DNA of 61,186 bases from a virus: the IMG/VR virus record IMGVR_UViG_3300049347_000001, positions 1 to 61,186 of that record; one strand, written 5' to 3'. Of this stretch, positions 45,565 through 58,177 are shown piece by piece. A model generated the notes under the pieces. The model worked only from the letters and a program-made list of their open reading frames with translations. It made no database searches and was not told the DNA's origin. The first letter of the stretch is position 1. Each line of letters opens with the position of its first letter. The translations under genes were made by a program, and so were the position numbers.

Positions 45565-45623
45565 GGGAGCGTGTCCTTCCAGGGGTTGGGTGCGGGGCCC
45601 GGGTTGGCCCCGCCGGGGTGTGG

Positions 45624-46079
45624 CTACAGGCCGCCGAGGACGTTGCCGAGGGAGCTGACGACGGAGGCGGTGAGCTGGTCGCCCATAGCGCCGACGACGG
45701 TGCCGGACAGGGCGATGCCGAACAGGCCGACGAGGACGGCGTCCCCGGGCTTGATGTCGCGGTGCTTGACCCGGACGAACACGATGATCCCGAGGACGAG
45801 AATCGCTACAACGCCGGCTCCGATCACCCCTCCCGAGGCCTGGGTCTGGACCTGGTCGCCGTAGCCGGCCGGGGCCTGCTGCGGTGCCTGCAAGGGGGCG
45901 CCCTGACCGCCGTTGGGGGTGAGGCCGTTGCCGATGCCGGGCTGGGTGTCGGTGCGGGCGATTGCGATGACGGTCGTCTCGTGCTCGACGGCGTCGGCGG
46001 TGGCGATCGTGGCGGCGCTCCCGACGAGGGCGACAGCGGCGGCGGTCGAGACGGCGGCGCGGCGAAGAGTGGAGTTCAT
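45624..46079 (-). CDS. Secreted/membrane protein (signal peptide + C-terminal TM segments), 151 aa
   Basis: ATG 46079 with AGGAGA RBS; MNSTLRRAAVSTAAAVALVGSAATIATA signal-like; later GVIGAGVVAILVLGIIVFV. Confidence 0.65.
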   Translation of the reverse strand: MNSTLRRAAVSTAAAVALVGSAATIATADAVEHETTVIAIARTDTQPGIGNGLTPNGGQGAPLQAPQQAPAGYGDQVQTQASGGVIGAGVVAILVLGIIVFVRVKHRDIKPGDAVLVGLFGIALSGTVVGAMGDQLTASVVSSLGNVLGGL

Positions 46080-46102
46080 GGCGGGTATCTCCTGAGGGTG
46101 GG

Positions 46103-47473
46103 TTAGCTGGCGCTCGGGCGGGAGTTGTTGCGGCGCAGAAGCTCTGCGTGGGCGCGGCCGGCGGCGCGGGTGTAGCGGGGCGTGTCACCGGCTTTACGGA
46201 CGGGCGGAACGGGCTTGTACGAGGACCGGGGTGTTTGGATCGCACGCTGGGCGTTCGTGTTCTTGCTGAGGGTGTTCACGCGGGTGCCGGTGAGGGCGGA
46301 TTCGACGCGCTTTTCGGCAGCCCGGCGGGCAGTGATGGACTCGATGGACTCGCCGGGTTCGCAGCCGTGGATGTTCCGGTATGCGCGCGGCCACACGGCC
46401 GGGTCGTCGGGCTCCTTGCCGAGAGCGGCGCCGATCTTCACGGCCTCTTCCCACACCGTCTTGAACACGGTCTGTCGGATGCCGCGCAGTTCCTGCCGCG
46501 CTTTCTCGGCGGCCTGGTCCGCGGCCTCCTTCTCCGCCCGCTTCTCCTTGGCCTCAGCGGCTTGCCGCTTGGCCTCCTTGTCAGCCTGTTTCTGGGCGGC
46601 ACGCTGCTGCCGCCACGACAGCTTCCCGTCCAGCTTGCGGATGCGACCGTGCTCGTGGAGGTCCCACATGCCGGGGCCGGCGACCGAGGCCAGGGCCGTT
46701 CCGAAGGCGGTCGCCGGGTCGAAGGCGCCGAGCCCGTGAACGATGTTGATCGACGCGGCGGTCAGGGCGCCGACCCAGGCGACGAGGCGGTAGTGCCACT
46801 GCGGGCGCCCGTCCGTCACCGCGGCGGCAGCACCGACGAGAGCGACCAGCGCGATCACCTCGATGAAGAGCGGGGCGACGAGCAGGTACTTTGCGGTCGG
46901 GTCGTAGAACGCGGCCATCTGCACAGGGAGGGCGACCGCAGCGCACAGGGCGTAGAAGGCGAGGGCGACGTTCCGCCAGCGCGTGCCGGACTTCTCGACG
47001 GCCTCCGCCTGCTCGGCCTCGGTCTGCTGTTCCTCCTCGGCGTCCCGGGCGGCTTGCTCGCGGGCGCGGTCGGCTTCCTCACGGCGCCGCTGATGCTCGG
47101 CGATCCGTGCGTCGGACGCGGCCTTCTCTTCTGCGGCCTTGCGTTCGGTCCGGTCGTTGGCGAGGCGCTGCTTGCGGGCGTCCTCCTCGGCCTTGACGCG
47201 AATCGCCTCAGCTTCGGCTTCCGCCTTGATGCGGCGCTCTTCCTTCTCCGCTTCGGCGGCGAGCCGCTTCTTCTCCGACTCGGCCCACGCCTGGGCGCGG
47301 ATCGCTTCGGCCTTGGCCTGGGCGACGAGGTCGTTGTCGCCCGCCTCGGCGGGCGACGCCGGAGCGGTGGTGGCTTCGGCCAGTGTGGTGGGGGCGGCCT
47401 GTATGGGCTGCCAGTCACCCAGCACGGGCGGGACGGGCCTAGCGTGGCCGTTCACCTGCGGGCTGGCAGTCAT
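46103..47473 (-). CDS. Coiled-coil + polytopic membrane protein (DUF2637-like, from memory), 456 aa
   Basis: Trimmed to ATG 47473; EKEERRIKAEAEAEAIRVKAEEDARKQR coiled coil, then 4 TM (VALAFYALCAAVALPVQMAAF.., LLVAPLFIEVIALVALVGAAAAV, ..), basic C-terminus. Confidence 0.6.
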   Translation of the reverse strand: MTASPQVNGHARPVPPVLGDWQPIQAAPTTLAEATTAPASPAEAGDNDLVAQAKAEAIRAQAWAESEKKRLAAEAEKEERRIKAEAEAEAIRVKAEEDARKQRLANDRTERKAAEEKAASDARIAEHQRRREEADRAREQAARDAEEEQQTEAEQAEAVEKSGTRWRNVALAFYALCAAVALPVQMAAFYDPTAKYLLVAPLFIEVIALVALVGAAAAVTDGRPQWHYRLVAWVGALTAASINIVHGLGAFDPATAFGTALASVAGPGMWDLHEHGRIRKLDGKLSWRQQRAAQKQADKEAKRQAAEAKEKRAEKEAADQAAEKARQELRGIRQTVFKTVWEEAVKIGAALGKEPDDPAVWPRAYRNIHGCEPGESIESITARRAAEKRVESALTGTRVNTLSKNTNAQRAIQTPRSSYKPVPPVRKAGDTPRYTRAAGRAHAELLRRNNSRPSAS

Positions 47474-47527
47474 GGCGGATCGGTGTCCTCTCAAGTGGTG
47501 GGGTAGTGCTGCGCCAGTTCTCCACGA

Positions 47528-47576
47528 GCCCCGTGCGAGACGGGGCCCGCAGTCAGCCGGTCAGCGGTTGCGGATC
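47528..47576. repeat. Intergenic repeat cassette, copy A
   Basis: Hairpin gccccgt-gcgag-acggggc (47528-46), then cagccggtcag and ggttgcggatc (47566-76); shares blocks with 47851-47888 and 48080-48104. Confidence 0.5.
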
Positions 47577-47601
47577 CAGCGGCTTAGTGCGGGGTCGCCG
47601 T

Positions 47602-47799
47602 TCACCGACGACCGGGCTTCCAGCCGGAGCCCTGCGTCCAGCCACGGTCCTGGGCCTCGCTGACCATGGCGTTGAGGTCGTTGTGGAAAGCGGCCTCTCG
47701 CTTCCGATCGCCATTACGGCGGGCCTCCGCCGCAGCTTCGGTGGCGAGCTCCATGCTCTGCTGAAGGTCGGCGTCGCTCGTCTTCTTGAACAGGGGCAT
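47602..47799 (-). CDS. Hypothetical protein, 65 aa
   Basis: ATG 47799 with GAGAGGAC RBS. Confidence 0.55.
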   Translation of the reverse strand: MPLFKKTSDADLQQSMELATEAAAEARRNGDRKREAAFHNDLNAMVSEAQDRGWTQGSGWKPGRR

Positions 47800-47850
47800 T
47801 TGGGGTCCTCTCGGTTGGGGTTGGAAGCGCTGACGCGGTTCCCCTCAACC

Positions 47851-47888
47851 GGGTCCGTGCGAGACGGGCCCGGCGGGCAGCCGGTCAG
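47851..47888. repeat. Intergenic repeat cassette, copy B
   Basis: gggtccgt-gcgag-acgggccc hairpin, then gcagccggtcag; 14-nt (ccgtgcgagacggg) and 11-nt (cagccggtcag) blocks identical to copy A. Confidence 0.5.
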
Positions 47889-48064
47889 TCGCCGTAGTTC
47901 TCAGGGAGTCCGTGGCGGCGCAGCCACTCGCTCTCGTAGTCGCGGCGGCCGACCGCCTCGAAGGTGCCGCGGGCGTCATTCACCTCGTCGTCGGTCATCT
48001 CCGGCGCGGTCTTGTGTGCCCAGGTCTTGCCGGTCAGGTCGGGCCAGCGGTCTGCGGATCCCAT
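47885..48064 (-). CDS. Hypothetical protein, 59 aa (below track cutoff)
   Basis: ATG 48064 with GAGAGGACAC RBS; own translation MGSADRWPDLTGKTWAHKTAPEMTDDEVNDARGTFEAVGRRDYESEWLRRHGLPENYGD*. Confidence 0.5.
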   Translation of the reverse strand: MGSADRWPDLTGKTWAHKTAPEMTDDEVNDARGTFEAVGRRDYESEWLRRHGLPENYGD

Positions 48065-48100
48065 GCGGGTGTCCTCTCGGGTTGCGGATCGGGCGGCCGG

Positions 48101-48283
48101 TCAGCGCTCGTCGGTGTTGATGAAGCAGAAAGACGTGAAGGCGTGGGCACGGGGGTTGGTGGTGGCGTTGACGATGCGCTCGGCGTCGGCGACGTCGCCG
48201 CGGTTGATGGCCTCACCGGCCCGGCGGGCGACGTCCATGTCGACGGGGGCGGTGGGCTCGTGCTTGCGGCTGAACAGGTTCAC
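48101..48283 (-). CDS. Hypothetical protein, 60 aa
   Basis: GTG 48283 with GAGAGGAC RBS. Confidence 0.5.
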   Translation of the reverse strand: MNLFSRKHEPTAPVDMDVARRAGEAINRGDVADAERIVNATTNPRAHAFTSFCFINTDER

Positions 48284-48323
48284 GTCGGGTCCTCTCGGTC
48301 GATTCGAACGGGACAGGGGCAGT

Positions 48324-48500
48324 TCAGGCGGCGGCGGGGAGGTGCAGGCCGCGGATCTCGTCCATGAGGGAGGTCTCGTCGGGGTGGTTGGCGTCGTACT
48401 CGATGGCGGCGAGGCCGATCTCCATGGCGCGGTCGTAGTCGCCGGAGGCTCGGGCGGACCGGTACTCGGCGAGGAAGGCGGAACGGGTCTGACTGGACAT
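48324..48500 (-). CDS. Hypothetical protein, 58 aa
   Basis: Track ORF 48324..48581 trimmed to ATG 48500 (GAAAGG RBS); MSSQTRSAFLAEYRSARASGDYDRAMEIGL... Confidence 0.45.
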   Translation of the reverse strand: MSSQTRSAFLAEYRSARASGDYDRAMEIGLAAIEYDANHPDETSLMDEIRGLHLPAAA

Positions 48501-48667
48501 GGCGGGGCCTTTCGGGCGTGGTGTGAGGTGGGAGCCGTGCCGGCGGGGGCCGCGGGGGATTCGGAACTTCCCCGCCGACACGGCGATCAGGGGTTAGCGC
48601 GGGCGGTTTTCGCTGCGCTCGTTGGCCTCACGGACCTTGCGGAGGAGTTCGGCACGCTCGGAGTCCG

Positions 48668-48886
48668 TCACGACGGGCCTCCCGCATGCCGGGCCTCTTC
48701 TTCACGGAGCTTCCGGCGCAGGTACTCGGCGTGCCATTCGGGGTCACCCTCGTCGAGGAAGCCCTTCAGGGTGGCGCGCACCCAGCCGGCCCGGTCGGCC
48801 AGCCGCCGCTCGTAGCGGTCGACGCTGTACGGCACGGTCAGCGCCTCCTGCACGGCGACGAGAAGCTCACGCTCGGCCGGGCTCAC
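48668..48886 (-). CDS. Hypothetical protein, 72 aa
   Basis: Track ORF 48668..48985 trimmed to GTG 48886 (GTGA overlap with the micro-ORF stop); the longer N-terminus has poor GC3. Confidence 0.5.
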   Translation of the reverse strand: MSPAERELLVAVQEALTVPYSVDRYERRLADRAGWVRATLKGFLDEGDPEWHAEYLRRKLREEEARHAGGPS

Positions 48887-48969
48887 GACGCCACCACCGT
48901 CGGGTACGGGTGCGGGCCGCGGGGGCGTCGAGGAAGCTCGTCCTTCGTCTTGCCGTGGTCCTCGGCCAT
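48883..48969 (-). CDS. Micro-ORF, 28 aa
   Basis: ATG 48969 in ATGA overlap with upstream stop; own translation MAEDHGKTKDELPRRPRGPHPYPTVVAS*; high GC3; bridges two coupled genes. Confidence 0.3.
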   Translation of the reverse strand: MAEDHGKTKDELPRRPRGPHPYPTVVAS

Positions 48970-49523
48970 CACTCGGCCACCTCAATCAGGTCCAGGCGGC
49001 CGGCGGCGGCGAGCTGGCAGCGGCACATCGCCATCTCGTCCTGCGCGGCCAGGCAACCGTCGAAGTCGGCGGACTCGGCCAGAGCGCGGCAGTGCTCGGA
49101 AGCCGCCCGGTAGCGGGCCACGGCGACGACGGGCACGTCGGTGCGGTAGCCGGTCTCGGGGTCGTCCTCGATGTCGGTGACGACTTCGACGGAGCCGACG
49201 CCGGGAACCTGCACGGTGAGGGTGATCTCGGTGGCCGTCCAGGTGGCGGAGCCGTCGGAGGCGGAGTGCTGGACCTGGCGGGTGGTGACGGTGCCGCCAA
49301 CCCGCTCGAAGATGTCGTTCAGCTCCATCTGCGACCAGGCCGTCAGGTACGTGGCCGTCTCGCCGAGGTGAGCGTTCGGCTTCCATCCGTGATCGAAGCC
49401 GAGGGCGGCCCGAACCTTCTCGATCGTCGCAGCGTCCGGCGTGGTGAGCGCCAACTCCAGACGGCGCACGACGTGCTCGGCGAGGGACGACAGTGGAGCG
49501 ATGGGAAGGGTCGAGGTGCTCAT
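48969..49523 (-). CDS. Hypothetical protein, 184 aa
   Basis: Track ORF trimmed to ATG 49523 (ATGA overlap with stop at 49520). Confidence 0.6.
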   Translation of the reverse strand: MSTSTLPIAPLSSLAEHVVRRLELALTTPDAATIEKVRAALGFDHGWKPNAHLGETATYLTAWSQMELNDIFERVGGTVTTRQVQHSASDGSATWTATEITLTVQVPGVGSVEVVTDIEDDPETGYRTDVPVVAVARYRAASEHCRALAESADFDGCLAAQDEMAMCRCQLAAAGRLDLIEVAE

Positions 49524-49960
49524 GCCGCACCGCCCATCTTCGCGATGCGGTCGCGGACGATGGCCAAGCGCAGCACCGGGTCCTGGCCGACGGGAACCGT
49601 CACCAGACGCGTGCCGTCCTCGCAGACCATCGAGAAGGCCTCGAAGTGCTCTCGCAGCATCGGGTCCAGCGTGGCCGGGTTCCACTCCTCCAGCTCGACG
49701 TCGTGCTCGGCAACCAGGGCGGCCAGCGTGTCGCGGGCCTCCTGCTCGTCGGCGAGCCGCTCGATGTCGGCGAGGCGGGCCCGGGTCGCGGCGACCATGT
49801 CGCGCAGACGGGCCGGCGTCACGTCACCGAAGTCGGCGAGCTGCGGGTCGGTCGAGGCGACGAGGGACAGACGGCCGGTGTCGGCGTCCGTCATCACCTC
49901 GGCCTCGAGGGTCAGGCTCACAGCGCGCACCACGGGGTGCGATAGGTTGGCGTTAGCCAT
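49520..49960 (-). CDS. Hypothetical protein, 146 aa (first gene of this leftward unit)
   Basis: Track ORF 49520..50080 trimmed to ATG 49960 (GGGAGA RBS). Confidence 0.6.
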   Translation of the reverse strand: MANANLSHPVVRAVSLTLEAEVMTDADTGRLSLVASTDPQLADFGDVTPARLRDMVAATRARLADIERLADEQEARDTLAALVAEHDVELEEWNPATLDPMLREHFEAFSMVCEDGTRLVTVPVGQDPVLRLAIVRDRIAKMGGAA

Positions 49961-50109
49961 CAGGGTCTCCCTAGCAGGTACCTGATCGGTTAGGGCCGGC
50001 CTGCGATGTAGGAGTCGCGGTGTCCGGCCCGATCTTCTTTTGTGCAGCGCCCGCGGACTGGGTCCGGTAGGAGTGGGCACAGCGAGTAGGCCGCGAAGCC
50101 GGGGGCTTT

Positions 50110-50197
50110 GCGTCTACTTTGTTGCAGGACCAGCATGGCACGGGGTCACCCCGAGCCGCAAGAACTGACGCCATGAAAGACGCAACAAAGTAGACGC
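50110..50197. promoter_or_regulatory. 16-bp perfect inverted repeats flanking a 56-bp spacer in a divergent control region
   Basis: GCGTCTACTTTGTTGC (50110-50125) and GCAACAAAGTAGACGC (50182-50197), read directly. Confidence 0.5.
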
Positions 50198-50231
50198 GGA
50201 ATCTGGTCGGGCAGCGCCCTCGCGTGAGAAC

Positions 50232-50504
50232 ATGCAGGACATGGCAGCGAAGACCCCGACACCAACCGCAGAGATGGCAGCCGCGCTCCGAAAGGTCGAC
50301 AGGGCCGCCGCTGCCCACGAGAAGACGCGCCACCGTCTCGAAGAGGCCGTGGCTGAAGCGCGCGAGCTCGGCTGCTCGTTGACGATCGTCTCGGAGCATG
50401 CTCGCTACAGCAGGGAATGGGTACGCAAGGCGACTGCCAGGTTCCACGACCAGCAGGGTGCCGCGACCCGAGTGGGCGACGAGTTGGACCATGCCACTGA
50501 GTGA
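50232..50504 (+). CDS. Small HTH-like protein, 90 aa
   Basis: ATG 50232 (alt 50241); AVAEARELGCSLTIVSEHARYSREWVRKATARF HTH-like; first gene of the plus-strand island. Confidence 0.55.
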   Translation: MQDMAAKTPTPTAEMAAALRKVDRAAAAHEKTRHRLEEAVAEARELGCSLTIVSEHARYSREWVRKATARFHDQQGAATRVGDELDHATE

Positions 50505-50609
50505 ATCGCGCGCTTCGAACCGTGACCACGTGAGCCCGGTGCAGCGCCGATGCAGCAGGAGTGCAGTCGCAGTGCAGTACGCCCGAAACGATCAGGCAAG
50601 GGGCGCAAA

Positions 50610-51245
50610 GTGGACGTCGTAACGTGGACCGGCCGCGACGCATGCGCCTTGCAGCAGGCCCTCCGCATGACGAACGACGACTTCGCCGACCACCTCGGCG
50701 TCGCCGTGCGCACGGTGGCGAACTGGCACTCCTCCCCCGGCACCGTGCCACGAACCGAGATCCAATCCGCCCTGGACACCGCTTACGAGAGGTCGACCGC
50801 ATCGGTGCAACGACGCTTCAGTCTTCTAACCCGCCCCGGCCCTGGTGCCGTCGAGGCGCAGGCCCTGCGGGTAGCGATCGCCGTAGTCCTGCGCGGAGAT
50901 GACGTGCTCCTCGTCTGCCGTCGCGGGGACGGCGAGATCCGCTGGCAGTTCCCCGCCGGCATGGTCAAGCCCGGCGCAGACCCTGCCGCCGTGGCCGCGC
51001 AGGAGACGCACGGCGAGACGGGCGTGCACTGCCGGGTCCGCGAGCAGCTGGGCGAGCGCGTACACCCGGTCACGGGCGTCGTGGCCACGTACTACCTGGC
51101 CGAGCACCTCGCGGGCGAGGCGGCCAACCGGGACCCGCTGGAGAACATCGACGTCACCTGGGCGCCCCGCTCGACCCTGACCCGCTTCATCCCCGCCGAC
51201 CAGATCTTCCCGCCCATCCTGAGCGCCTTGGAGGTTGCCGCATGA
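50610..51245 (+). CDS. XRE-type HTH fused to a degenerate Nudix domain, 211 aa
   Basis: Track ORF 50550..51245 trimmed to GTG 50610 (AAGGGG RBS). WTGRDACALQQALRMTNDDFADHLGVAVRTVANWHS = HTH; Nudix-box region GMVKPGADPAAVAAQETHGETGV lacks the first E, the R of RE and one E of EE. Confidence 0.7.
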   Translation: MDVVTWTGRDACALQQALRMTNDDFADHLGVAVRTVANWHSSPGTVPRTEIQSALDTAYERSTASVQRRFSLLTRPGPGAVEAQALRVAIAVVLRGDDVLLVCRRGDGEIRWQFPAGMVKPGADPAAVAAQETHGETGVHCRVREQLGERVHPVTGVVATYYLAEHLAGEAANRDPLENIDVTWAPRSTLTRFIPADQIFPPILSALEVAA

Positions 51246-51658
51246 CGACCGAGACGAAGACCGAGAAGCCCGGCATCTCCGCGGCCATCATCGTGGACCA
51301 GGGCTGCGTGCTCATGGTCAGGCGGGCCGTGAAGGAGGGCGAACTCTCCTGGCAGTTTCCGGCCGGCGCGATCGAGGCCGGGGAGGCGGCCGACGAGGCG
51401 GCGGTGCGGGAGACGCTCGAGGAGACTGGCCTGACAGTCAAGGCGATCCGGCAGATCGGCTACCTGGAATCCCACCCGAAGTCCGGCCGGGAGATGTTCT
51501 ACACGGCCTGCGAGGTTCTCCAGGGCGAGGCCAAGGTCGCCGACGCTGACGAGCTGGACGCGGTCGCCTGGGTGACGCTGGAGGAGATCCCGCAGTACGT
51601 GCCCTACGGGCTGTTCGGGCCGGTGCAGGAGTACCTCGACGCCACCCTCGGTCGTTGA
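51242..51658 (+). CDS. Nudix hydrolase with canonical Nudix box, 138 aa
   Basis: ATGA overlap with the previous gene; GAIEAGEAADEAAVRETLEETGL fits GX5EX7REUXEEXGU exactly. Confidence 0.85.
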   Translation: MTTETKTEKPGISAAIIVDQGCVLMVRRAVKEGELSWQFPAGAIEAGEAADEAAVRETLEETGLTVKAIRQIGYLESHPKSGREMFYTACEVLQGEAKVADADELDAVAWVTLEEIPQYVPYGLFGPVQEYLDATLGR

Positions 51659-51665
51659 GGCGGTC

Positions 51666-51824
51666 ATGAACGAGGAACCGACCCCCGGCCTGGCGGACAC
51701 CGAGACACGGACGGCCACGTTGCCCGACGGTACAACGATGGTGATCGCCGTGAAGCGCGGCCTGTCGCAGGATGAAGTGGATCTACTGGCGGCGCGGCTG
51801 TGGCAGGAGACACCCGGCACCTGA
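51666..51824 (+). CDS. Hypothetical small protein, 52 aa (below track cutoff)
   Basis: Own translation MNEEPTPGLADTETRTATLPDGTTMVIAVKRGLSQDEVDLLAARLWQETPGT*; followed by a strong terminator. Confidence 0.4.
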   Translation: MNEEPTPGLADTETRTATLPDGTTMVIAVKRGLSQDEVDLLAARLWQETPGT

Positions 51825-51834
51825 CGGCACGGCA

Positions 51835-51871
51835 GAAGGCCCCCGCTCGCGGTGTGCGAGCGGGGGCCTTC
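51835..51871 (+). terminator. Terminator hairpin closing the Nudix island
   Basis: gaaggcccccgctcgc-ggtgt-gcgagcgggggccttc: 16-bp perfect stem. Confidence 0.75.
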
Positions 51872-52086
51872 GTCATGCTCACCGTCGTCTGGCGGGCGGC
51901 CCGTAGGGGCTCTGCCAGGCGGGCCGGTCGCGGCGCTGTGAGGCCGCCGCACGGGTGGCCCGTGAGCGCGGGCGGACTCGCCGACGCCTGAACGGAGTAC
52001 CGACATTCCACAGGTCACACACAAACCGGGAAGTAACAACGAGGCTCTGTCTACCAGCACCAGCCCACCCTCGTTCTGGAGTCCGT

Positions 52087-52461
52087 ATGCTCACCGACGT
52101 CTGCCTCATCTGCCTCATCGTGTGTGAGAGCGCAGCAACGCTTGCGCTCCTGGTCGGGCGCATCGCGCCATGGCGCTGCCATGGCGCGATGGCCTTCCTC
52201 AAGGGTCTCGGCACCGTGCTGGCCGTCTGGGCCCATTGGACGGTCTTGGCCTACGTCTGCGCCGGCTTCACGGCGTTGGGTGCGTGGAAATGGTGGAACA
52301 GCGGGGGCGGTGACGGTACCCGACGCCGGCTTAAGTCCTGGGCGCGCCGCTTCCAGGGAACCCGCCGCACCGCCCCCTCCCTTGTAGCGTCCGTCCGCGG
52401 GTCAGCGCGCCGAGGGTCTGGACTTCGGCGGCCGGTGCGGACCGCATGGCGTCGTCGCTGA
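52087..52461 (+). CDS. Small membrane protein (about 3 TM), up to 124 aa
   Basis: ATG 52087 with GGAG RBS within track ORF 51955..52461; LICLIVCESAATLALLVG, GLGTVLAVWAHWTVLAYVCAGFTALGAW; the 3' end overlaps the convergent ORF 52331..52519, so the true stop is uncertain. Confidence 0.45.
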   Translation: MLTDVCLICLIVCESAATLALLVGRIAPWRCHGAMAFLKGLGTVLAVWAHWTVLAYVCAGFTALGAWKWWNSGGGDGTRRRLKSWARRFQGTRRTAPSLVASVRGSARRGSGLRRPVRTAWRRR

Positions 52462-52519
52462 CGGCGTAGTCGGTCAGGGCGTTGTCGATCTGGTCGAGGA
52501 TGTGGTCGGCGGTGCTCAC
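52331..52519 (-). CDS. Hypothetical protein, 62 aa (last gene of the long leftward early operon)
   Basis: GTG 52519 in GTGA overlap with stop at 52516; first about 40 codons have high GC3; ends in a rare TAA. Confidence 0.4.
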   Translation of the reverse strand: MSTADHILDQIDNALTDYAVSDDAMRSAPAAEVQTLGALTRGRTLQGRGRCGGFPGSGAPRT

Positions 52520-52755
52520 GGCCGGGCCTCCTTGGGCGGGTTGCTGGTTCTCATGATGGCCAAGCAGTCGAGGTTGTCGGCCTCCTGGTCGATGGCGGCT
52601 GCCGCGGTTTCAAGGTCGCAGTCGGAGTCGTCGGCAAGAGTCCGGCAGGACTCGGCAATGGCGCGGAGCAACGCGACGACGGCGTCGGCGCCGAGGTAGG
52701 CGTGCCCGTCGGCGAAGGTGACGATGGGGAGGCGGTCGGTGGCGTGGCCGGTCAC
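52516..52755 (-). CDS. Hypothetical protein, 79 aa
   Basis: Track ORF 52516..52929 trimmed to GTG 52755 (GTGA overlap with stop at 52752). Confidence 0.5.
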   Translation of the reverse strand: MTGHATDRLPIVTFADGHAYLGADAVVALLRAIAESCRTLADDSDCDLETAAAAIDQEADNLDCLAIMRTSNPPKEARP

Positions 52756-53369
52756 GCCGCCCGCCTCTCTGCGAGCGGTAGCTGGAGCGCCTCGGAGTGC
52801 CCGTACTGGGTCGAGCAGCCGGGGCAGCGGACGCCAGCCGTGTCGAGGGTGATGCGGAGAACGTGTCCGCAGATGCAGGTGACGGGGACGCGGCGGGGCG
52901 GCTTTTCGCCGCCGGTCGCGGTCACGCACTGGAAGCGGATCCTCGACACCTCGCCCGCGAACTCGTCGAAGGCGCCGTGAGCTTCAGCCGCCCACGGCAG
53001 GAGGACGCGAAGCCGGTGGACGACCTGGTCGCACTGCTGCTGGAGGTCGCCGTCCCAGCGGGGGTACCGGTAGCCGAGGGTCTCGTGCCAGTCGACGAGC
53101 CACGTCTGGAGGATGGTGATCACGCCGCCGCGGGCTGCCAGGGAGAGCGGGTCGAGGCGCAGCGGGAGGGGTGCGGTGCGGCTTCCGGAGACGGCGGGGC
53201 CGGCCATGCCTGCGCCGGGCTGGAGGCTGTCGGACAGCTTGGCGTACAGGCCGTCGGGCCCGGCGAGGGCGGCCAGGTTGGAGCCGACCCTTTCGGTGCA
53301 CGGCTGGCAGGCCTGGTGTCCGAGTTCGTCGGCGTAGAGGTCGCGGTGGCAGACGGTGCAGGCGTTCAC
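52752..53369 (-). CDS. Zinc-ribbon protein, 205 aa
   Basis: GTG 53369 with AAGGAG RBS; CTVCHRD..CQPC at the N-terminus and CICGH..CPGC at the C-terminus. Confidence 0.6.
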   Translation of the reverse strand: MNACTVCHRDLYADELGHQACQPCTERVGSNLAALAGPDGLYAKLSDSLQPGAGMAGPAVSGSRTAPLPLRLDPLSLAARGGVITILQTWLVDWHETLGYRYPRWDGDLQQQCDQVVHRLRVLLPWAAEAHGAFDEFAGEVSRIRFQCVTATGGEKPPRRVPVTCICGHVLRITLDTAGVRCPGCSTQYGHSEALQLPLAERRAA

Positions 53370-53406
53370 GGCGTGCTCCTTGCGGGCGTGCGGGCGGGGC
53401 GGTGGT

Positions 53407-53583
53407 TCAGGCGCGGTACAGCGGTTCGTTGCGCAGGTGCGGGGCGAGGATGGCGAGGGCGCGTTCGGCGGGGGTGGGTTCTGGCGGCGGGATGGGGAGG
53501 CCGTTGTCGAGGTACCACCAGTCGCCGGGGTAGATCGGCCAGCTGGCGTGGATGACCTTGAGGGGAAGTTCGGGCGCGGCCAT
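53407..53583 (-). CDS. Hypothetical protein, 58 aa
   Basis: Track ORF trimmed to ATG 53583 (ATGA overlap with upstream stop). Confidence 0.45.
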   Translation of the reverse strand: MAAPELPLKVIHASWPIYPGDWWYLDNGLPIPPPEPTPAERALAILAPHLRNEPLYRA

Positions 53584-54278
53584 CACTCGCCCTCCTTCTC
53601 GAGCGGCCAGCGCCGATCGTTGCCGGCGCATTCGGCAACGCTCGGGCCGGCTTCGGGCCCGTACCACTGATAGCTGTCCGTGTAGCGGGCCACGTTCTTG
53701 GCGGCTTGCACGAGACGCATGTCGTCGGTCGCTTGGGTCGCTGCCGGGCCGGGCGTGGTGTGCTGGCAGTGGACGCCCGTGAACTTGTTGTTGATCCTGC
53801 ATCGCTGCCGTTGCCGGTCCTCCCACATTCGGAGTTCGGCGGCGTGCTCAGGGCGCCGGGTGGCTGCGGCGGCGAGGAGTTCGGCGGTCTCGCAGGCGGT
53901 CGACGTGTACGCGGGGATGTCGAGCAGGGCGAGGATGTGATCGGGGAGTTGTTCCCGCCGGTCGCCGGGTGGGGGTGGCGTCCAGGCTGTCGGGCCGGGT
54001 GCGGGCTGGTCGAGGGCGCGGATGGTGTCGCAGGGCCAGGTGGTGTCGTAGCCGAGGCGCTGTCCGTGCGCGCAGTAGACGCAGGTGTCGCCGTGGCTGG
54101 CCTTCCGGTGGAGGGCGCGGACGCGGGTGAGGGCGGCTTCGGCGCGTTCCAGGTCGGGGACGATGAGTTGGACGTGGCGTTTGTTCCCGGCGGCGACGTG
54201 TTCGAGGGTGGCGATCCGCGCGTACAGGGCGTCGAGTTGGTCGCTGGTGAGGTTGTCCAGCGGGATGCGGTCCGTCAT
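53583..54278 (-). CDS. Hypothetical Cys-containing protein, 231 aa
   Basis: Track ORF 53583..54329 trimmed to ATG 54278 (ATGA overlap with stop at 54275). Confidence 0.6.
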   Translation of the reverse strand: MTDRIPLDNLTSDQLDALYARIATLEHVAAGNKRHVQLIVPDLERAEAALTRVRALHRKASHGDTCVYCAHGQRLGYDTTWPCDTIRALDQPAPGPTAWTPPPPGDRREQLPDHILALLDIPAYTSTACETAELLAAAATRRPEHAAELRMWEDRQRQRCRINNKFTGVHCQHTTPGPAATQATDDMRLVQAAKNVARYTDSYQWYGPEAGPSVAECAGNDRRWPLEKEGE

Positions 54279-54508
54279 GTGGCGTCCTGGTCGTCGGGGC
54301 GTATGCCGATCGTGAGGGTGTGTCCGCAAAGGCCGAGGATGCCCTCGGCCCAGGTGAGGGTGAGCGTGGCGCGGCCGGTGAGCATTTGGTTCATGTGCTT
54401 GGTGGAGCAGCCGAATTGGCGGCAGGCCTCGGCTTGGCTGATGCCGGCGGCTTGGAGTGCGGCGCGGACGTGGGCGCGGAGTCGGTCCTCGGCGGTGGCC
54501 TCGGTCAT
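54275..54508 (-). CDS. XRE-type HTH protein, 77 aa
   Basis: Trimmed to ATG 54508 (ATGA overlap); AGISQAEACRQFGCSTKHMNQMLTGRA = HTH. Confidence 0.6.
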   Translation of the reverse strand: MTEATAEDRLRAHVRAALQAAGISQAEACRQFGCSTKHMNQMLTGRATLTLTWAEGILGLCGHTLTIGIRPDDQDAT

Positions 54509-54726
54509 GGGGTGGCCTCGTTCCAGTGGCGGATCATCTCGTCGAACGTCGCGTTGACGGCGGCTTGGTCGGCGAGTTGGTCCCAGTCGGGCGTGGGTGC
54601 GGGGTCGGGGAAGGGGCGGGCGAGGCGTTCGGCGGTGACGGCCGCGCGGCGGAGGCTGGTTCGGATGCGCCGGCCGATGCACCAGCTGGCGGCGAGGGCG
54701 AGGACGGCGATCAGGGCGGCGGTCAC
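54505..54726 (-). CDS. Small membrane-anchored protein, 73 aa
   Basis: Trimmed to GTG 54726 (GGAGGAAA RBS); VTAALIAVLALAASWCIG TM. Confidence 0.5.
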   Translation of the reverse strand: MTAALIAVLALAASWCIGRRIRTSLRRAAVTAERLARPFPDPAPTPDWDQLADQAAVNATFDEMIRHWNEATP

Positions 54727-54824
54727 GGTTTCCTCCGGTTCCAGATGGCGTGGATGGCGAGTGTGAGTGCGGCGAGGGCGCTGATGCCGGGGCATGCGAG
54801 GCCGACAGCGGTGGCGGCGGTCAT
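54723..54824 (-). CDS. Micro-ORF, 33 aa, single TM
   Basis: ATG 54824 in ATGA overlap, stop in GTGA overlap; own translation MTAATAVGLACPGISALAALTLAIHAIWNRRKP*. Confidence 0.3.
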   Translation of the reverse strand: MTAATAVGLACPGISALAALTLAIHAIWNRRKP

Positions 54825-55027
54825 GGGGTGGCCTCGGGGTCGATGAGGTTGGCGGCCCACTGGGTGCCGTTGTCGAACATGTCGACGTGGATCGCCGGCA
54901 GATCGGTGGTGCGGATCTGCTCGGCGAGTTCGTGCGCGAAGGCGTCGAGGTTGGCTTCGGCGCGCGCTGTGCTGAGGCCGCCCTGCTGGAGGTAGGCGAT
55001 CAGGCGGGCTCGGACGGTGATGGTCAT
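54821..55027 (-). CDS. Hypothetical protein, 68 aa
   Basis: Trimmed to ATG 55027 (GAAAGGA RBS). Confidence 0.5.
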   Translation of the reverse strand: MTITVRARLIAYLQQGGLSTARAEANLDAFAHELAEQIRTTDLPAIHVDMFDNGTQWAANLIDPEATP

Positions 55028-55082
55028 GCCGGTCCTTTCGGTGGGTGGCCGCCCCGGGGTGGGCGGCGGCCGACGGGCACGG

Positions 55083-55364
55083 TCAGGCGAGGGTTGCGGC
55101 GCGGCGTTCGGCTGCGATCCGGCGGAGGGTTGCTCGGACTTCGCCGGTGGCGACCGCGATGGCGATGTCGGCGATGCAGTCGACGCACACCCAGTCGGCG
55201 GCGTTCTCCAGGTGGAAGGCGGTGGCTCCGTCATGGAAGACGCGGAACTGCATGCGGCTGCTGGTGAAGGAGCAGGTGCCGATCGTCTGGCCGCGTCCGC
55301 AGTCGCAGTCGCCGCCGAGTTCGCCGATGACGGGCGTGGCTTCGGGGGTGAGGTTGTACTTCAC
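55083..55364 (-). CDS. Cys-rich small protein, 93 aa
   Basis: GTG 55364 with GAAAGGAAG RBS; GGDCDCGRGQTIGTCS..WVCVDC. Confidence 0.55.
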   Translation of the reverse strand: MKYNLTPEATPVIGELGGDCDCGRGQTIGTCSFTSSRMQFRVFHDGATAFHLENAADWVCVDCIADIAIAVATGEVRATLRRIAAERRAATLA

Positions 55365-55627
55365 GGGGCTTCCTTTCGCATTGGCGGCCCTGAGGGCCTC
55401 TCTGTCACTTCTGGCACCACGGGGACCCGGGAGGGGAGTTCGACGCTCCTAGACCCCGCCAGGGCCCGTCTCGGGCCTCTCCCGGTCCGTGCGGAGATCT
55501 GCCGCCACGCCCACACCCCCGCGTTCCCGGCGGCCGCACCCAGCAGCCCGGCCAGCACCACGCCGGCGGTGAGTGCGAGGAGCAGGCCGGTGATGACGAG
55601 GTCACCGACCTCCCACGCCGACGTCAC
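55361..55627 (-). CDS. Small membrane protein, 88 aa
   Basis: Trimmed to GTG 55627 (GTGA overlap); GDLVITGLLLALTAGVVLAGLLGAAAG TM. Confidence 0.5.
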   Translation of the reverse strand: MTSAWEVGDLVITGLLLALTAGVVLAGLLGAAAGNAGVWAWRQISARTGRGPRRALAGSRSVELPSRVPVVPEVTERPSGPPMRKEAP

Positions 55628-55977
55628 GGCCGGGCCTCGGCGCGGGCGACGGGCCAGGACCAGCCCATCCGCGACCGGTGATTCTTCCCGCCGTGCCCGG
55701 CCGGGAGATTGCACGGACGGGGCTCGTACCGGGAGGGCGTCAGGTGAGCCGGGCCGCCCATCGACCCGCACTCCGGTTCGCCGGGGTTGGCGAAGTCCTT
55801 GAAGTGATCGAGGTGCCGCAGGGTGCTGGCGTCGTCGCGGTAGTAGCAGATGTGCGCCGTGCAGCTGCCGCAGAAGTCGCACTCGCCGCATTCGTCGAGG
55901 AGCCAGGGGTCGACGAGGATTCCGAAGTGGGCGGTGTAGCGGCGGTTCGCGCAGGGCGTCTTCCAGGAGCGGGTCAC
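55624..55977 (-). CDS. Cys-rich protein, 117 aa
   Basis: Trimmed to GTG 55977 (GTGA overlap); DECGECDFCGSCTAHIC. Confidence 0.5.
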   Translation of the reverse strand: MTRSWKTPCANRRYTAHFGILVDPWLLDECGECDFCGSCTAHICYYRDDASTLRHLDHFKDFANPGEPECGSMGGPAHLTPSRYEPRPCNLPAGHGGKNHRSRMGWSWPVARAEARP

Positions 55978-56810
55978 GGCTGGGCCTCCTTCGGCTGCTG
56001 CGCCCCGGTGCCGGGGCAGTGCCGGGTGGGGCCGTCGGGTCGCTGCGTCCAGTCGTGTGGGGCGTGGGGCTGCCGAGTTGAGATCGCGATGTCGCAGCGG
56101 ATCACCTTCGGCTGCTGCGGGTTGACGGCGGCAGGCGGGTCGGCGTCCGTGCCGCGCTGCCCGCCGAGGAGGGCGCGGGCCTCTGCCTGCGCCGCCCGGT
56201 AGCCCTCGCCGTAGGCGCCCTTGCCGATCTCGGACCATGACCAGATGAGCGTGCGGCCGATGCGTGCCGAGTCGCTCTGCCATGGCTTGGGCGTCGTCTC
56301 GTCGGCCGCCCGACCCGACACGACGGCAGCGGCGTCGGCCATGCGGCGGAGTTCGGTGGCGGCGTCCTCGCGGGCATCGCAGGAGGCGCACGGCTTGCGG
56401 CCACCGCAGCCCTCGTTCATCGCCTCAACGAACACGGCGGCTTCCCGCAGCACTGCCGTCCGGACGGTCTCCGGCGTGGGCTCGATCCCCATCCGCAGGG
56501 CGAGCGCGCCCGTCAGGTGCTCGGCGAGGTGCTGCCGGATCTGAGCGTGCTGAAGGCTGGCGAGCCGGGCGGTGCGCTGGAAGTCGGCGAGCGCGTCGTA
56601 GATGGCGGTGGTCAGTGCGGCCGTCCGGTTGGGGGTGGGCGCCTGCCCGACAGACGAGACGGCGGACAGTGCGGCGGCGATCTTGTCGCGGAGTTCACAT
56701 CCCGCACAGCCGTAGTTCGCAGCGAGGTTGTCGTGGCGGGCGACGGAGCCGTGCAGGGCGGAAAGGTAGTTCTCGGCGTCGCGGAGGAGCCGGGCGGTCT
56801 GGTCGGTCAT
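55974..56810 (-). CDS. Hypothetical protein, 278 aa
   Basis: ATG 56810 with GGAGAC RBS; no domain recognised. Confidence 0.6.
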   Translation of the reverse strand: MTDQTARLLRDAENYLSALHGSVARHDNLAANYGCAGCELRDKIAAALSAVSSVGQAPTPNRTAALTTAIYDALADFQRTARLASLQHAQIRQHLAEHLTGALALRMGIEPTPETVRTAVLREAAVFVEAMNEGCGGRKPCASCDAREDAATELRRMADAAAVVSGRAADETTPKPWQSDSARIGRTLIWSWSEIGKGAYGEGYRAAQAEARALLGGQRGTDADPPAAVNPQQPKVIRCDIAISTRQPHAPHDWTQRPDGPTRHCPGTGAQQPKEAQP

Positions 56811-56916
56811 CGGGTCTCCAGGGGCAGGGCCGGAACAGCCGGCGGCAGGTGGGTACGGTGGGTGCCAGGCCCGGCGGTGGTAACGACACCGCCGGGCTGC
56901 TCCACGGAATGGGTGG

Positions 56917-57261
56917 TCACGGAATCAGCGCGTCCTGCACGGCCTCGACAACCGGCACCGACTCGGACTCCTCGTCAGGCAGCGGCGGCGGGTTCACCTC
57001 GAAGTGCGCGCCCGCCCAGTTCCGCTCGCACATGTCGGTGAAGCTCAGCCAGTTCCGGCGGACCTCGCGGCCTACGACCGTGGTGAGCGTGCCGTCCGGG
57101 TGGAGCGTGCAGTCGAACGGCGGCAGGCCCTCGGTGTGCACTCGGATCGGGGTCGGTACGGCGGGCAGCTCAGGTGGGGCGGGAGCCTCGACTGGCCCGG
57201 CCGCTGCGTCGAAGCCGGCGTTGCCCCGGCAGTGCGGGCACATCTCCTCATGCCGGCTCAC
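56917..57261 (-). CDS. Hypothetical protein, 114 aa
   Basis: Trimmed to GTG 57261 (GTGA overlap with stop at 57258). Confidence 0.5.
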   Translation of the reverse strand: MSRHEEMCPHCRGNAGFDAAAGPVEAPAPPELPAVPTPIRVHTEGLPPFDCTLHPDGTLTTVVGREVRRNWLSFTDMCERNWAGAHFEVNPPPLPDEESESVPVVEAVQDALIP

Positions 57262-57860: not shown

Positions 57861-57934
57861 GGTTGTCTCCTGGTGGGATGCTGGTGGTGCACCCACGCCC
57901 CTTCGCCGGGCGTGGGTGTCTGCATGCGGGACGA

Positions 57935-58177
57935 TCACGGGGCAGGCGGGGCGGCGTTGATGGCGCGGGCGGCGCCCAGTGCCGGGGCCAGCCAGTGCGC
58001 CGTCTGGTCGACTTCCACGCCGTGCCGGGTGACGGCGTCGCAGGTTTCCGCCGTGGTGCGCAGCAGGTACGCGTAGCAGGCGTCGAGGTCGGGGTACTGG
58101 CCGGTGAGCGTCGGCGGGGTGGTCGAGGGCGGGGAGAGTTTGTCGGCGGCGGTGCGGAGTTCGTCGGCGGGTGTCAT
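57935..58177 (-). CDS. Hypothetical protein, 80 aa
   Basis: Track ORF 57935..58864 trimmed to ATG 58177 (GAGGAG RBS). Confidence 0.5.
   Translation of the reverse strand: MTPADELRTAADKLSPPSTTPPTLTGQYPDLDACYAYLLRTTAETCDAVTRHGVEVDQTAHWLAPALGAARAINAAPPAP

Follow-up and report, generated by a model that had tools for sequence, protein, structure and literature searches.

The adjacent genes g2 and g3 of a Streptomyces phage encode two related Nudix proteins, the first a degenerate copy joined to a domain of the helix-turn-helix (HTH) type and the second a canonical hydrolase. Judged from their sequences and distribution, they constitute an old and widespread module: translational coupling links them in every pair compared, and some elements carry both as a single chain. 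We read this module as an autoregulated pairing of a Nudix pseudoenzyme with a Nudix enzyme that serves a Pif-like immunity or signalling role, and assign this interpretation a probability of roughly 45%. In terms of known systems, the module is a variant of NrtR-like regulators and of the Pif-type Nudix proteins of mobile elements; it is mentioned once in the literature and is uncharacterised.

Organization of the locus

The window, meaning the whole 61-kb contig that was analysed (61,186 nucleotides), is the genome of a siphovirus-like Streptomyces phage. Four open reading frames (g1, g2, g3, g4) and a hairpin lie on the plus strand amid minus-strand operons. Codon-position GC analysis identified 50550-51824 as the only stretch with credible plus-strand genes between 40162 and 60981, and the flanking minus-strand genes span 40162-50080 and 52331-60981. 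An earlier sequence-only reading had described an opposite-strand unit that looked autonomous, a description borne out by codon-position GC, by the minus-strand operons on each side and by the closing hairpin. That reading had also spoken of a four-gene cassette. Four plus-strand frames do exist, but the conserved core is g2-g3, and both g1 and g4 vary among relatives.

Searches with the region as DNA gave no match in the phage collection and only short, Nudix-level matches among plasmids. At the protein level, neither phages nor plasmids yielded an HTH-Nudix pair; the plasmid match H25 was rejected, being a lone Nudix of no relation. A sigma-70 promoter scan returned no promoter, and no tRNAs were detected in the 61-kb window. 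Elsewhere in the window, a small HTH_3 gene separate from g2 adjoins the integrases at 13167-13409.

The g2 protein combines an HTH with a degenerate Nudix domain

The g2 gene occupies 50610-51245 on the plus strand and encodes 211 aa, comprising an HTH and Nudix domain A. Its longest open reading frame begins at an ATG at 50550. The true start is most likely the GTG at 50610, because homologues are 208-212 aa long with the N-terminus MDVV.TWTG and because a Shine-Dalgarno-like AAGGGG (50598-50603) precedes this codon.

Residues 1-75 are predicted by AlphaFold to form a five-helix bundle (helices 8-18, 22-29, 33-41, 49-61 and 64-74; pLDDT 85, core >92). In the model, the helix-turn-helix falls at helices 2-3, the arrangement by which Cro/C1-type domains are recognised. 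The structural neighbours retrieved with Foldseek are almost all Cro/C1-type proteins (Mbf1, Aca2, HigA2, P22 C2, 434 Cro and P2 C), at E-values of only 0.2-1. By sequence, Pfam gave only sub-threshold matches of this segment to HTH_23 and Phage_CI_repr (the latter at E 0.028), a profile search against the PDB yielded nothing better than E 0.3, and hhalign showed no significant similarity to the HTH_3 and HTH_31 proteins that the window itself encodes.

Domain A (residues ~87-211) matches the Pfam NUDIX family (PF00293) above the gathering score (E 1.2e-12). Together with the modelled bundle, this match upholds the proposal that g2 fuses an HTH to a degenerate Nudix fold. Its box, GMVKPGADPAAVAAQETHGETGV (50958-51026), was compared with the consensus GX5EX7REUXEEXGU and has A in place of E, Q in place of R and G in place of the leading E in the EE pair; domain A lacks a complete catalytic box. 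Three lost catalytic positions had been counted before, which is true of g2 in the window but not of the whole family, where only two are lost. All g2 relatives examined lack two metal-binding glutamates, namely the one that follows GX5 and the one that opens the EE pair, whereas the change from R to Q is confined to the Streptomyces clade and the Amycolatopsis relatives keep R.

Domain A is the most conserved segment of the module, with a mean pairwise identity of 0.70 compared to 0.64 for the Nudix domain of g3 (domain B) and 0.61 for the HTH. On comparative grounds, the degeneracy of the g2 box is ancient and under purifying selection, which makes a regulatory or sensor role for g2 plausible. 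Some residual or altered catalysis may nevertheless persist, since two glutamates of the box are still present. Both Nudix domains share a conserved His-Pro ~14-15 residues past the box. When domain A is aligned with the ADP-ribose pyrophosphatase of T. thermophilus, this His-Pro falls on the proline of the SPG motif, a weak hint of an ADP-ribose-like substrate.

The g3 protein is a canonical Nudix hydrolase tied to g2

The g3 gene (51242-51658, plus strand) encodes a canonical Nudix hydrolase of 138 aa that matches PF00293 at E 4.2e-23. Its box, at 51365-51433, is complete (GAIEAGEAADEAAVRETLEETGL), and the full box is canonical in nearly all g3 relatives. The perfect box and the ATGA overlap with the g2 stop codon, both remarked on in the sequence-only reading, can be read directly from the DNA. 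By sequence, domain B is a paralogue of domain A that has remained fully canonical. It resembles solved Nudix enzymes only generically: structural and profile searches returned generic Nudix neighbours only, and NCBIfam matches of the MutT type were weak, with every equivalog score far below its cut-off. The sole PADLOC match was to PDC-S07, a 135-position Nudix model for a candidate single-gene system (E 2.9e-16 for g3 and 7e-8 for g2), at a level compatible with generic Nudix similarity.

The association between the two genes is strict. In 66 of 66 unique pairs from Streptomyces, Amycolatopsis and related genera, with 34 IMG/VR contigs among the sources, g2 and g3 are adjacent with overlapping frames; the overlap is 4 bp in 61 pairs and 8-23 bp in the remaining five. 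At least a dozen proteins carry the HTH and Nudix domains A and B in one chain (P0121, P0122, P0126, P0132, P0134, P0143, P0271, P0273, P0275-P0282 and P0284), and in alignments these fusions are collinear with concatenated g2-g3 pairs. In the databases, the family counts more than 1400 proteins or sequence clusters that carry the mere annotation ‘NUDIX hydrolase’.

Structure prediction and HMM comparison of both Nudix domains had been suggested as a check. Pfam matches both domains, and the AlphaFold model of a natural fusion contains the HTH and two Nudix folds (pLDDT 87). The pTM of this model is only 0.48, so it does not establish an interface between A and B. A full-length Foldseek search with a fused relative gave generic Nudix neighbours, headed by NudC and Nudt12. 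These enzymes set a precedent in that their live Nudix domain has a non-catalytic N-terminal domain packed against it, but the analogy is structural only and the superposition on the fused relative is poor (TM ~0.3, rmsd 15-16 A). They differ from the module in having no HTH and in their biology, which is the removal of NAD caps.

A phased repeat array is the predicted g2 operator

Upstream of g2, four RTGCAS units with an exact period of 11 bp occupy 50539-50577 on the plus strand, which is -71 to -33 relative to the start of g2 (GTGCAG CGCCG ATGCAG CAGGA GTGCAG TCGCA GTGCAG). This is the sole TGCA array in the 61 kb, where 0.09-0.15 would be expected. Across 1.32 Mb of related loci, 36 of 38 such arrays are situated directly upstream of g2. 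The repeats covary with the recognition helix of the HTH. TGCA arrays are present in 34 of 35 loci with the helix RTVA.W and in none of the 28 loci with RT[IV][ST]RW, 25 of which have pairs of GACAY spaced 11 bp apart instead. This covariation splits along two clades and is therefore not phylogenetically independent. From its position and distribution, the array is likely to be the operator of g2, with autoregulation as the predicted outcome.

Direct repeats with an 11-bp period are the classic sites of response regulators of the OmpR/PhoB family, and for this reason a host regulator could bind the array in place of g2. The array was also considered as an RNA element and rejected as such, given that it belongs to no Rfam family and that shuffled sequence folds better than the leader does. 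About 45 bp further upstream, the motif CATGCC-N4-GAGTSAA (50490-50505, plus strand) overlaps the last codons of g1. A regular expression recovers this motif in 22 of 35 loci, with both operator classes and several genera represented, and it may form part of the promoter.

Context in relatives and comparison with known systems

Relatives of the module are found in prophage-like contigs, near FtsK/Tra- and Spd-like genes, and in AICEs and ICEs. In the conjugative elements, the module comes immediately behind an XRE or GntR gene, with xis, whiB, spd and tra running in the divergent direction. An XRE gene precedes g2 in loci L021 and L043, and in L079 and L080 a GntR gene stands directly before a fusion of the HTH with both Nudix domains. 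AICE versions of the module are linked to an NDK gene. One fused relative (P0278) is located among metabolic genes, with no obvious mobile element.

A close parallel is with the korSA-pif genes of pSAM2, which reportedly form one operon, as Possoz et al. are said to have described in 2003. In both cases, the Nudix gene is co-oriented with an adjacent regulator and divergent from the genes for excision, transfer and spread. The relatives thus include what characterises the context of Pif, a Nudix gene beside a Kor-type regulator on an integrative conjugative element. Pif is itself a Nudix protein, whose role in conjugal immunity requires that its Nudix motif be intact (PMC2440964); AICEs in general commonly carry Nudix genes (PMC2440964, PMC3218068). 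The likeness to korSA-pif is one of gene context. An analogy with Pif had been drawn from the window's sequence, and it is strengthened by the relatives next to GntR or XRE genes, fusions included, in ICEs and AICEs. By analogy, g2-g3 occupies the place of kor-pif in pSAM2 and probably does the same kind of job. There are also clear differences. The Nudix part of the module is double, with a degenerate copy fused to the HTH and a canonical copy beside it; furthermore, the genome in the window is that of a tailed phage rather than an AICE, and the upstream gene g1 does not encode a GntR protein.

NrtR, a Nudix-related transcriptional regulator of NAD metabolism whose DNA binding is controlled by the ligand ADP-ribose, provides a second point of comparison. 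In both proteins, the Nudix domain is catalytically impaired and has a DNA-binding domain as its fusion partner. The order of the domains is different, however, with an N-terminal Nudix domain and C-terminal winged helix in NrtR but a Cro/C1-type HTH followed by the Nudix domain in g2. Unlike NrtR, the module has an obligatory partner enzyme and is associated with mobile elements rather than genes of NAD biosynthesis. Its predicted site also consists of short repeats phased at 11 bp, as opposed to the palindrome bound by NrtR.

Clusters of xre and nud genes are known on AICEs (PMC2440964, PMC3218068). The mdp-nud-xre clusters of pMEA100, pSE211 and AICESco5349 resemble the module in encoding an XRE regulator together with a Nudix hydrolase. 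They differ in that the module places an XRE-type HTH and a Nudix domain in one protein, has a second Nudix gene after it and is linked to NDK instead. Neither the neighbouring genes in the window nor the Pfam-labelled related loci that were examined included an HD-domain (mdp) gene. Aca2, HigA2 and the C-proteins, which are HTH autorepressors in operons of mobile elements, share a similar HTH fold and likewise come first in a small operon with an operator at its promoter, as is predicted for g2. None of them contains a Nudix domain, and each is partnered by an anti-CRISPR, a toxin or a restriction enzyme. The literature also contains a passing reference to an HTH plus Nudix gene on a Streptomyces ICE as possibly cI-like (PMC9513070). 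The earlier view that the arrangement is undescribed is thus nearly true, this mention and the AICE xre-nud clusters (PMC2440964, PMC3218068) being the exceptions.

Proposed mechanism and alternative explanations

In the mechanism that we favour, domains A and B would form a heteromer in which A acts as a non-catalytic subunit, either binding nucleotides or serving as a scaffold, and B is the hydrolase. The HTH of g2 would bind the 11-bp-phased TGCA units and repress the module's own promoter, perhaps with one HTH per A-B unit and adjacent units aligned along a single DNA face. A ligand of the nucleoside-diphosphate-X type in the Nudix sites would modulate DNA binding, as ADP-ribose does for NrtR, and B would remove that ligand. 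Within a prophage or integrated element, the module would set the level of a nucleotide signal, and this signal would govern induction, transfer or immunity against a second copy, as Pif does for pSAM2. In a narrower and rather doubtful version, the module would be a switch for recognition between cells or between element copies, operated by a nucleotide signal: a heteromer of the HTH-pseudo-Nudix and live Nudix proteins would assemble head-to-tail on the 11-bp-phased repeats, the dead site would sense a nucleoside-diphosphate-X messenger and the live site would erase it. If true, this version would provide a molecular explanation of Pif-type conjugal or superinfection immunity in mycelial actinomycetes.

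Several other explanations account for part of the evidence. The arrangement of the genes, with the HTH first, a 4-bp overlap and predicted autoregulation, fits type II toxin-antitoxin operons. As a toxin-antitoxin or abortive infection system, g3 would be harmful when unrestrained, for example through depletion of NAD, ADP-ribose or nucleotides or through RNA decapping, and g2 would be an HTH antitoxin that uses its pseudo-Nudix domain to bind and restrain g3 and also represses the operon. The similarity of the g2 HTH to the antitoxins HigA2 and NatR, the carriage of the module by mobile elements and the weak PADLOC match to PDC-S07 are all in keeping with this. We nevertheless consider such a system unlikely, as both parts occur as stable single-chain fusions, the supposed antitoxin domain is better conserved than the supposed toxin and g3 resembles an ordinary small Nudix protein. 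Moreover, the NDK link of the AICE versions points to nucleotide metabolism or signalling, and generic Nudix similarity could account for the PDC-S07 match. The proximity of the g2 HTH to Aca2 in structure raises a related scenario, namely an anti-defence operon of the Aca-Acr type in which g3 destroys immune signalling nucleotides or helps to rebuild NAD and g2 is an autorepressor that limits expression. Phage Nudix domains have been proposed to counter signals derived from ADP-ribose (PMC9503650), and a self-contained unit with predicted autoregulation is present in phages and conjugative elements alike. However, the unit faces away from the flanking operons for early and transfer functions and ends in a terminator of its own, an arrangement better suited to expression from a resident element than to expression early after entry. 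ICEs and AICEs also carry the module at the position of a regulator, no match to known anti-defence families was obtained, and the conserved pseudo-Nudix domain would be left without a role. This scenario, too, appears improbable.

It is less probable again that g2 acts like cI as the master repressor that controls the phage or element, with the Nudix domain mediating dimerisation or sensing induction. This was suggested in passing for the HTH-Nudix gene of Streptomyces ICE01 (PMC9513070), and g2 is oriented opposite to the lytic and transfer genes, matches Phage_CI_repr weakly in Pfam (E 0.028) and has P22 C2 and P2 C among its structural neighbours. A site of the TGCA type nevertheless occurs only once in the 61 kb, upstream of g2, with none at early promoters, and this array lies downstream of g1, outside the divergent promoter region. 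The window has a separate small HTH_3 gene beside its integrases (13167-13409), and in the ICE and AICE relatives the upstream GntR or XRE protein is the more obvious Kor-type repressor. MutT-like house-cleaning, whereby the pair would sanitise the nucleotide pool for replication of the element and the HTH would be a minor addition, is very improbable. Database names such as ‘8-oxo-dGTP diphosphatase’ and ‘NUDIX hydrolase’, the weak NCBIfam matches of the MutT type and the NDK gene near AICE versions of the module could be cited in its favour. The names are automatic, though, and the equivalog scores are all far below threshold. House-cleaning would also leave the degenerate domain, the DNA-binding domain, the phased array and the strict pairing and fusion unexplained.

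The module, read as an autoregulated pseudoenzyme-enzyme pair, bears on a recurrent and unexplained feature of actinomycete conjugative elements, their Nudix genes; the mechanism of Pif immunity has remained open in the literature since 2003. More than 1400 clusters named ‘NUDIX hydrolase’ represent a fixed two-part device in which a DNA-binding pseudo-Nudix protein is invariably coupled to a live Nudix enzyme and in some cases forms one chain with it. The device is common to temperate Streptomyces phages, AICEs and ICEs of the T4SS type and has a distinctive predicted operator. Through it, a nucleotide signal could come to bear on how bacteria that produce antibiotics control lysogeny and horizontal gene transfer. 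In addition, the pair is a clean natural example of pseudoenzyme and enzyme paralogues recruited into transcription control.

Variable flanking genes and the closing hairpin

The first frame of the unit, g1 (50232-50504, plus strand), encodes a small protein of 90 aa with a coiled coil and an HTH-like segment. Its coding status is backed by a third-codon-position bias of substitutions relative to its relatives, and it weakly matches phrog_686, annotated as ‘HTH DNA binding protein’ (E 0.0014). It fills a variable slot for an upstream regulator, which in other loci holds a different small HTH protein, an XRE protein of 142-170 aa or a GntR protein. A 173-aa frame antisense to g1 (49971-50492) was considered because frames of similar length recur in relatives. 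It was rejected on the basis that substitutions fall at the third positions of the plus-strand frame and that its own GC3 is low.

A perfect 16-nt inverted repeat, GCGTCTACTTTGTTGC (50110-50125) and GCAACAAAGTAGACGC (50182-50197), with a 56-nt spacer, separates two divergent genes, the one at 49520-50080 on the minus strand and g1, and lies in the intergenic space that they share. The repeat is unique in the window. Among related loci, it is kept only in those that bear g1 (L001/L002, L005 and L006), with spacers of 32, 44 and 56 nt. It is more likely a candidate operator of g1 than of g2, because it is present only where g1 is. The suggestion that g2 targets the repeats at 50110-50197 has accordingly been set aside; the TGCA array at 50539-50577 is the better candidate for a g2 operator.

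At the other end of the unit, g4 (51666-51824, plus strand) is an open reading frame of 52 aa whose status as a gene is uncertain. Family searches with g4 gave no match. Its homologues are sporadic, occurring only in L005 (where they are adjacent), L006, L017 and L054, and in about 30 other loci this position is taken by a 102-aa gene that is unrelated to it. The unit closes with a hairpin whose arms (51835-51850 and 51856-51871) pair perfectly around a 5-nt loop; the 16-bp stem had been noted in the sequence-only reading. Its folding energy is -49.2 kcal/mol (z -7.0), and a U-tract is absent downstream. Lacking a T run, the hairpin escaped a consensus terminator scan. From its predicted structure, the hairpin is probably an intrinsic terminator of the kind that lacks a U-tract, and possibly a bidirectional one.

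Gene organization of the plus-strand unit

Between 40 kb and 61 kb, the only plus-strand genes in the window are the four ORFs described in the sequence-only reading, i.e. g1 (50232-50504), g2 (50610-51245), g3 (51242-51658), and g4 (51666-51824). The features described for this unit (ORFs, Nudix boxes, gene overlap, hairpin, and inverted repeat) were all re-found and the observation is therefore confirmed. The hairpin closing the unit (51835-51871) has a perfect 16-bp stem (dG -49 kcal/mol, z -7), and the ~460 bp beyond it (51872-52330) contain no ORF with coding-like codon composition. The g1 gene has an atypical codon composition and weakly matches a phage HTH-protein family; its substitutions relative to homologues are concentrated at third codon positions. 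No match to g4 was found in any library searched. The g2 protein is most likely 211 aa long, starting at GTG 50610, versus 231 aa for the longest ORF, because its homologues are 208-212 aa in length and begin MDVV.TWTG, and this codon has an AAGGGG site seven bases upstream.

Conservation of the two-Nudix module

The g2 product matches Pfam NUDIX (E 1.2e-12) and contains the degenerate box GMVKPGADPAAVAAQETHGETGV (domain NudixA). As first read, g3 encodes a canonical Nudix protein (NudixB; NUDIX E 4e-23) with a perfect box, and its ATG overlaps the g2 stop codon as ATGA. A search of 5.8 billion proteins recovered 1409 relatives of g2, mostly from Streptomyces and named in databases only as ‘NUDIX hydrolase’ or ‘8-oxo-dGTP diphosphatase’. 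A scan covering a single genome for each species yielded 36 loci, from Streptomyces, Kitasatospora, Amycolatopsis, Actinosynnema, Lentzea, and Pseudonocardiaceae MAGs, and IMG/VR yielded 34 viral contigs of 50-95 kb with the module. A g3 homologue directly follows g2 in every locus that spans both genes. The overlap is 4 bp (ATGA or GTGA) in 61 of the 66 unique pairs and 8-23 bp in the remaining five. Single-chain HTH-NudixA-NudixB proteins with the same domain order were found among 50%-identity representatives, and a follow-up search extended these to about a dozen distinct fused clusters, several present on multiple contigs; they align collinearly with concatenated g2 and g3 pairs. The invariable adjacency, coupled translation, and recurrent fusion of g2 and g3 are classical signs of two proteins working as one physical unit. 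Two apparently non-actinobacterial proteins of low G+C origin, P0147 (352 aa) and P0158 (597 aa), lack the HTH and have unrelated sequences N-terminal to the same NudixA-NudixB tandem, which means that the pairing of the two Nudix domains predates the HTH fusion and extends beyond it.

Three box positions had been described as lost in g2, and two of these losses hold family-wide: every relative has a variable residue in place of the Glu after GX5, and G, A or S where the EE pair would have its first Glu. The third, Arg to Gln, is restricted to the Streptomyces clade, with R or K present in Amycolatopsis and allies. The Glu after the Arg and the last Glu of the box are invariant. Mean pairwise identity is 0.70 for NudixA, 0.64 for NudixB, and 0.61 for the HTH. 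The degenerate box is old and maintained; that NudixA is the most conserved part of the module, and not decaying, argues for a function needing less than the full metal site. In Pseudonocardiaceae AICEs, there is also a second, orphan gene that combines a different HTH with a NudixA-type degenerate domain and has no NudixB partner (L021, 1214-1912, minus strand, box G-x5-G...RETxTETD; equivalents in L022, L027, and L029-L034). This gene is consistent with NudixA acting more generally as a regulatory domain in the HTH proteins of such elements.

Predicted DNA-binding domain and candidate operator

Sequence evidence for the HTH of g2 is weak and did not place it in an HTH family: Pfam gave only sub-threshold HTH matches, profile searches of the domain against the PDB gave nothing significant, and hhalign comparisons with the window’s own XRE-type proteins were not significant. 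For this reason, residues 1-88 of the window’s own g2 were modelled with an alignment of relatives. The result was a confident five-helix bundle (pLDDT 85), whose Foldseek neighbours are almost all Cro/C1-type HTH proteins (Mbf1/EDF1, Aca2, HigA2, P22 C2, 434 Cro, controller C-proteins, P2 C, SinR), with probabilities up to 0.99 and E-values of just 0.2-1, as expected for a 70-residue domain. On the basis of this model, we accept a predicted Cro/C1-type fold.

The perfect inverted repeat with 16-nt arms (50110-50197) occurs once in the window, as reported, and had been proposed as the g2 target. Elsewhere it is found only in four other loci, all with g1, which makes it more likely to belong to g1 or the divergent promoter. 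Its spacer is 32, 44 or 56 nt among relatives (window, L001, L005, L006), i.e. varies in 12-nt steps.

Directly upstream of g2 lies a four-unit array with an exact 11-bp period, GTGCAG-N5-ATGCAG-N5-GTGCAG-N5-GTGCAG (50539-50577), the sole such array in 61 kb (chance expectation 0.09 for three units and 0.15 for two). Within 1.32 Mb of related loci, 36 of the 38 arrays of at least three units are located between -75 and -21 relative to the g2 start, in genera ranging from Streptomyces to Actinosynnema; the fused gene of L079 has a degenerate copy upstream. The recognition helix RTVA.W co-occurs with TGCA arrays in 34/35 loci, and RT[IV][ST]RW with no TGCA array in 28/28 and with GACAY units 11 bp apart in 25/28. 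On this basis, we infer that the g2 HTH binds the phased units and autoregulates its operon, with two cautions: the two helix/repeat classes are also two clades, and direct repeats with an 11-bp period are a usual type of site for host regulators of the OmpR/PhoB type. No known RNA family matched the g2 leader, which folds less well than its shuffled controls. The remaining two arrays (L017 9587-9612, L067 11093-11118) lie shortly downstream of g3 and may serve as a second regulator target in some elements. A separate conserved motif, CATGCC-N4-GAGTSAA, occurs ~45 bp upstream of the array in the window (50490-50505) and in 21 related loci. It spans both operator classes and genera, whichever gene precedes, and resembles no promoter consensus that could be placed.

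Genomic context

The window is a complete JGI contig of 61,186 bp with ~70% G+C and no tRNA genes found, and its minus strand carries nearly all credible genes. PHROG and Pfam searches identify it as a tailed temperate phage, with genes for structure and lysis (large terminase, portal, major head protein, tape measure protein, tail proteins, endolysin), integration and regulation (two tyrosine integrases, Ant/Bro anti-repressor), and recombination and replication (RecE/RecT, RusA, DnaB with a DnaC-like loader). In DNA comparisons the window has no close relative among isolated phages; structural genes are ~67% identical to counterparts in Gordonia, Mycobacterium, and Arthrobacter phages. The integrase genes are on opposite strands (10952-12313, plus; 15221-16249, minus) and enclose a small HTH_3 gene (13167-13409) and a DUF6415 gene (13569-13961); the region 10468-16249 could be a nested element, or else the actual immunity/integration locus. 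The minus strand also encodes an FtsK/SpoIIIE-type protein (43291-46245; phrog_12531) and an adjoining 463-aa membrane protein (46103-47494), the L001 counterpart of which has an SpdB C-terminal HTH domain. This gene pair recurs across many related prophage loci. A tailed-phage genome thus holds, at 43291-47494, the transfer and spread genes that typify conjugative elements of Streptomyces.

Streptomyces modules sit in prophage-like elements sharing the window’s layout, in the order DnaB, HTH_31, module, small genes, and Spd-like and FtsK-like genes. In Kutzneria, Amycolatopsis, and Phytohabitans, the module lies within AICEs, divergent from HTH_17 (Xis), WhiB, and Spd-like or FtsK genes, and in the first two genera is preceded by a 142-170-aa XRE gene. 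In 11 AICE/ICE loci, a convergent pair just downstream comprises a nucleoside-diphosphate kinase (NDK) paralogue and a 102-146-aa gene (e.g. L021 9174-10020, L043 11979-12826, L044 11064-11881, L079 11070-11875), the latter gene being roughly 103-106 aa in the AICEs just named. This pair is absent from the window and the Streptomyces prophage versions. Fused protein P0121 is encoded in a T4SS-type ICE (TrwC relaxase, coupling protein, DUF2637, Xis, integrase), between a 135-aa GntR gene directly upstream and the small-gene/NDK pair downstream. The gene for fused P0276 overlaps the end of a GntR gene, and fused P0278 has metabolic neighbours.

Predicted function

We propose, at a probability of about 0.45, that g2 and g3 assemble as a pseudoenzyme-enzyme Nudix heteromer, which the HTH would anchor at its own promoter through the phased repeats. 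NudixA would sense a nucleoside-diphosphate-X compound with its dead site, and the live site of NudixB would remove it. The resident phage or element could thereby control a nucleotide signal for induction, transfer or immunity, as Pif does. By analogy, the module may work like a mixture of NrtR and Pif. NrtR is a Nudix-domain regulator, but g2 does not have its architecture; Pif, like the module, is a mobile-element Nudix protein. In pSAM2, the GntR repressor gene korSA precedes the Nudix gene pif. P0121 and P0276 resemble this arrangement in having a GntR gene before the Nudix gene. KorSA and Pif jointly hold pSAM2 quiescent, and conjugal immunity requires the Pif Nudix motif, by a mechanism described as unknown (PMC2440964, PMC3218068). 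The family is abundant and only generically annotated, and its architecture has been mentioned once, for a Streptomyces ICE01 HTH + Nudix gene named as possibly cI-like, data not shown (PMC9513070). The module is not categorically new; it does give a concrete and testable way into a long-standing question.

A toxin-antitoxin or abortive-infection module would also suit the operon logic and the resemblance of the HTH to HigA2/NatR, but stable single-chain fusions and a highly conserved would-be antitoxin argue against this. Resemblance of the HTH to Aca2 similarly invites comparison with Aca-type anti-defence operons, but the orientation and terminator of the unit and its regulator-slot position in ICEs do not fit this model, which would also leave the pseudo-Nudix domain without a role. 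It is unlikely that g2 is a master cI-like repressor, since its type of site is confined to its own upstream region and other regulators are at hand (g1, upstream GntR or XRE genes, the HTH_3 gene near the integrases). MutT-like house-cleaning accounts for none of the module’s special features.

For the substrate of the proposed heteromer, profile and fold searches returned generic Nudix neighbours only (DR1025, MutT2, RppH, NUDT15/18, NudC/Nudt12). A His-Pro conserved 14-15 residues past each of the two boxes coincides in alignment with the proline that is a signature of ADP-ribose pyrophosphatases, which is only a weak hint at ADP-ribose-like compounds.
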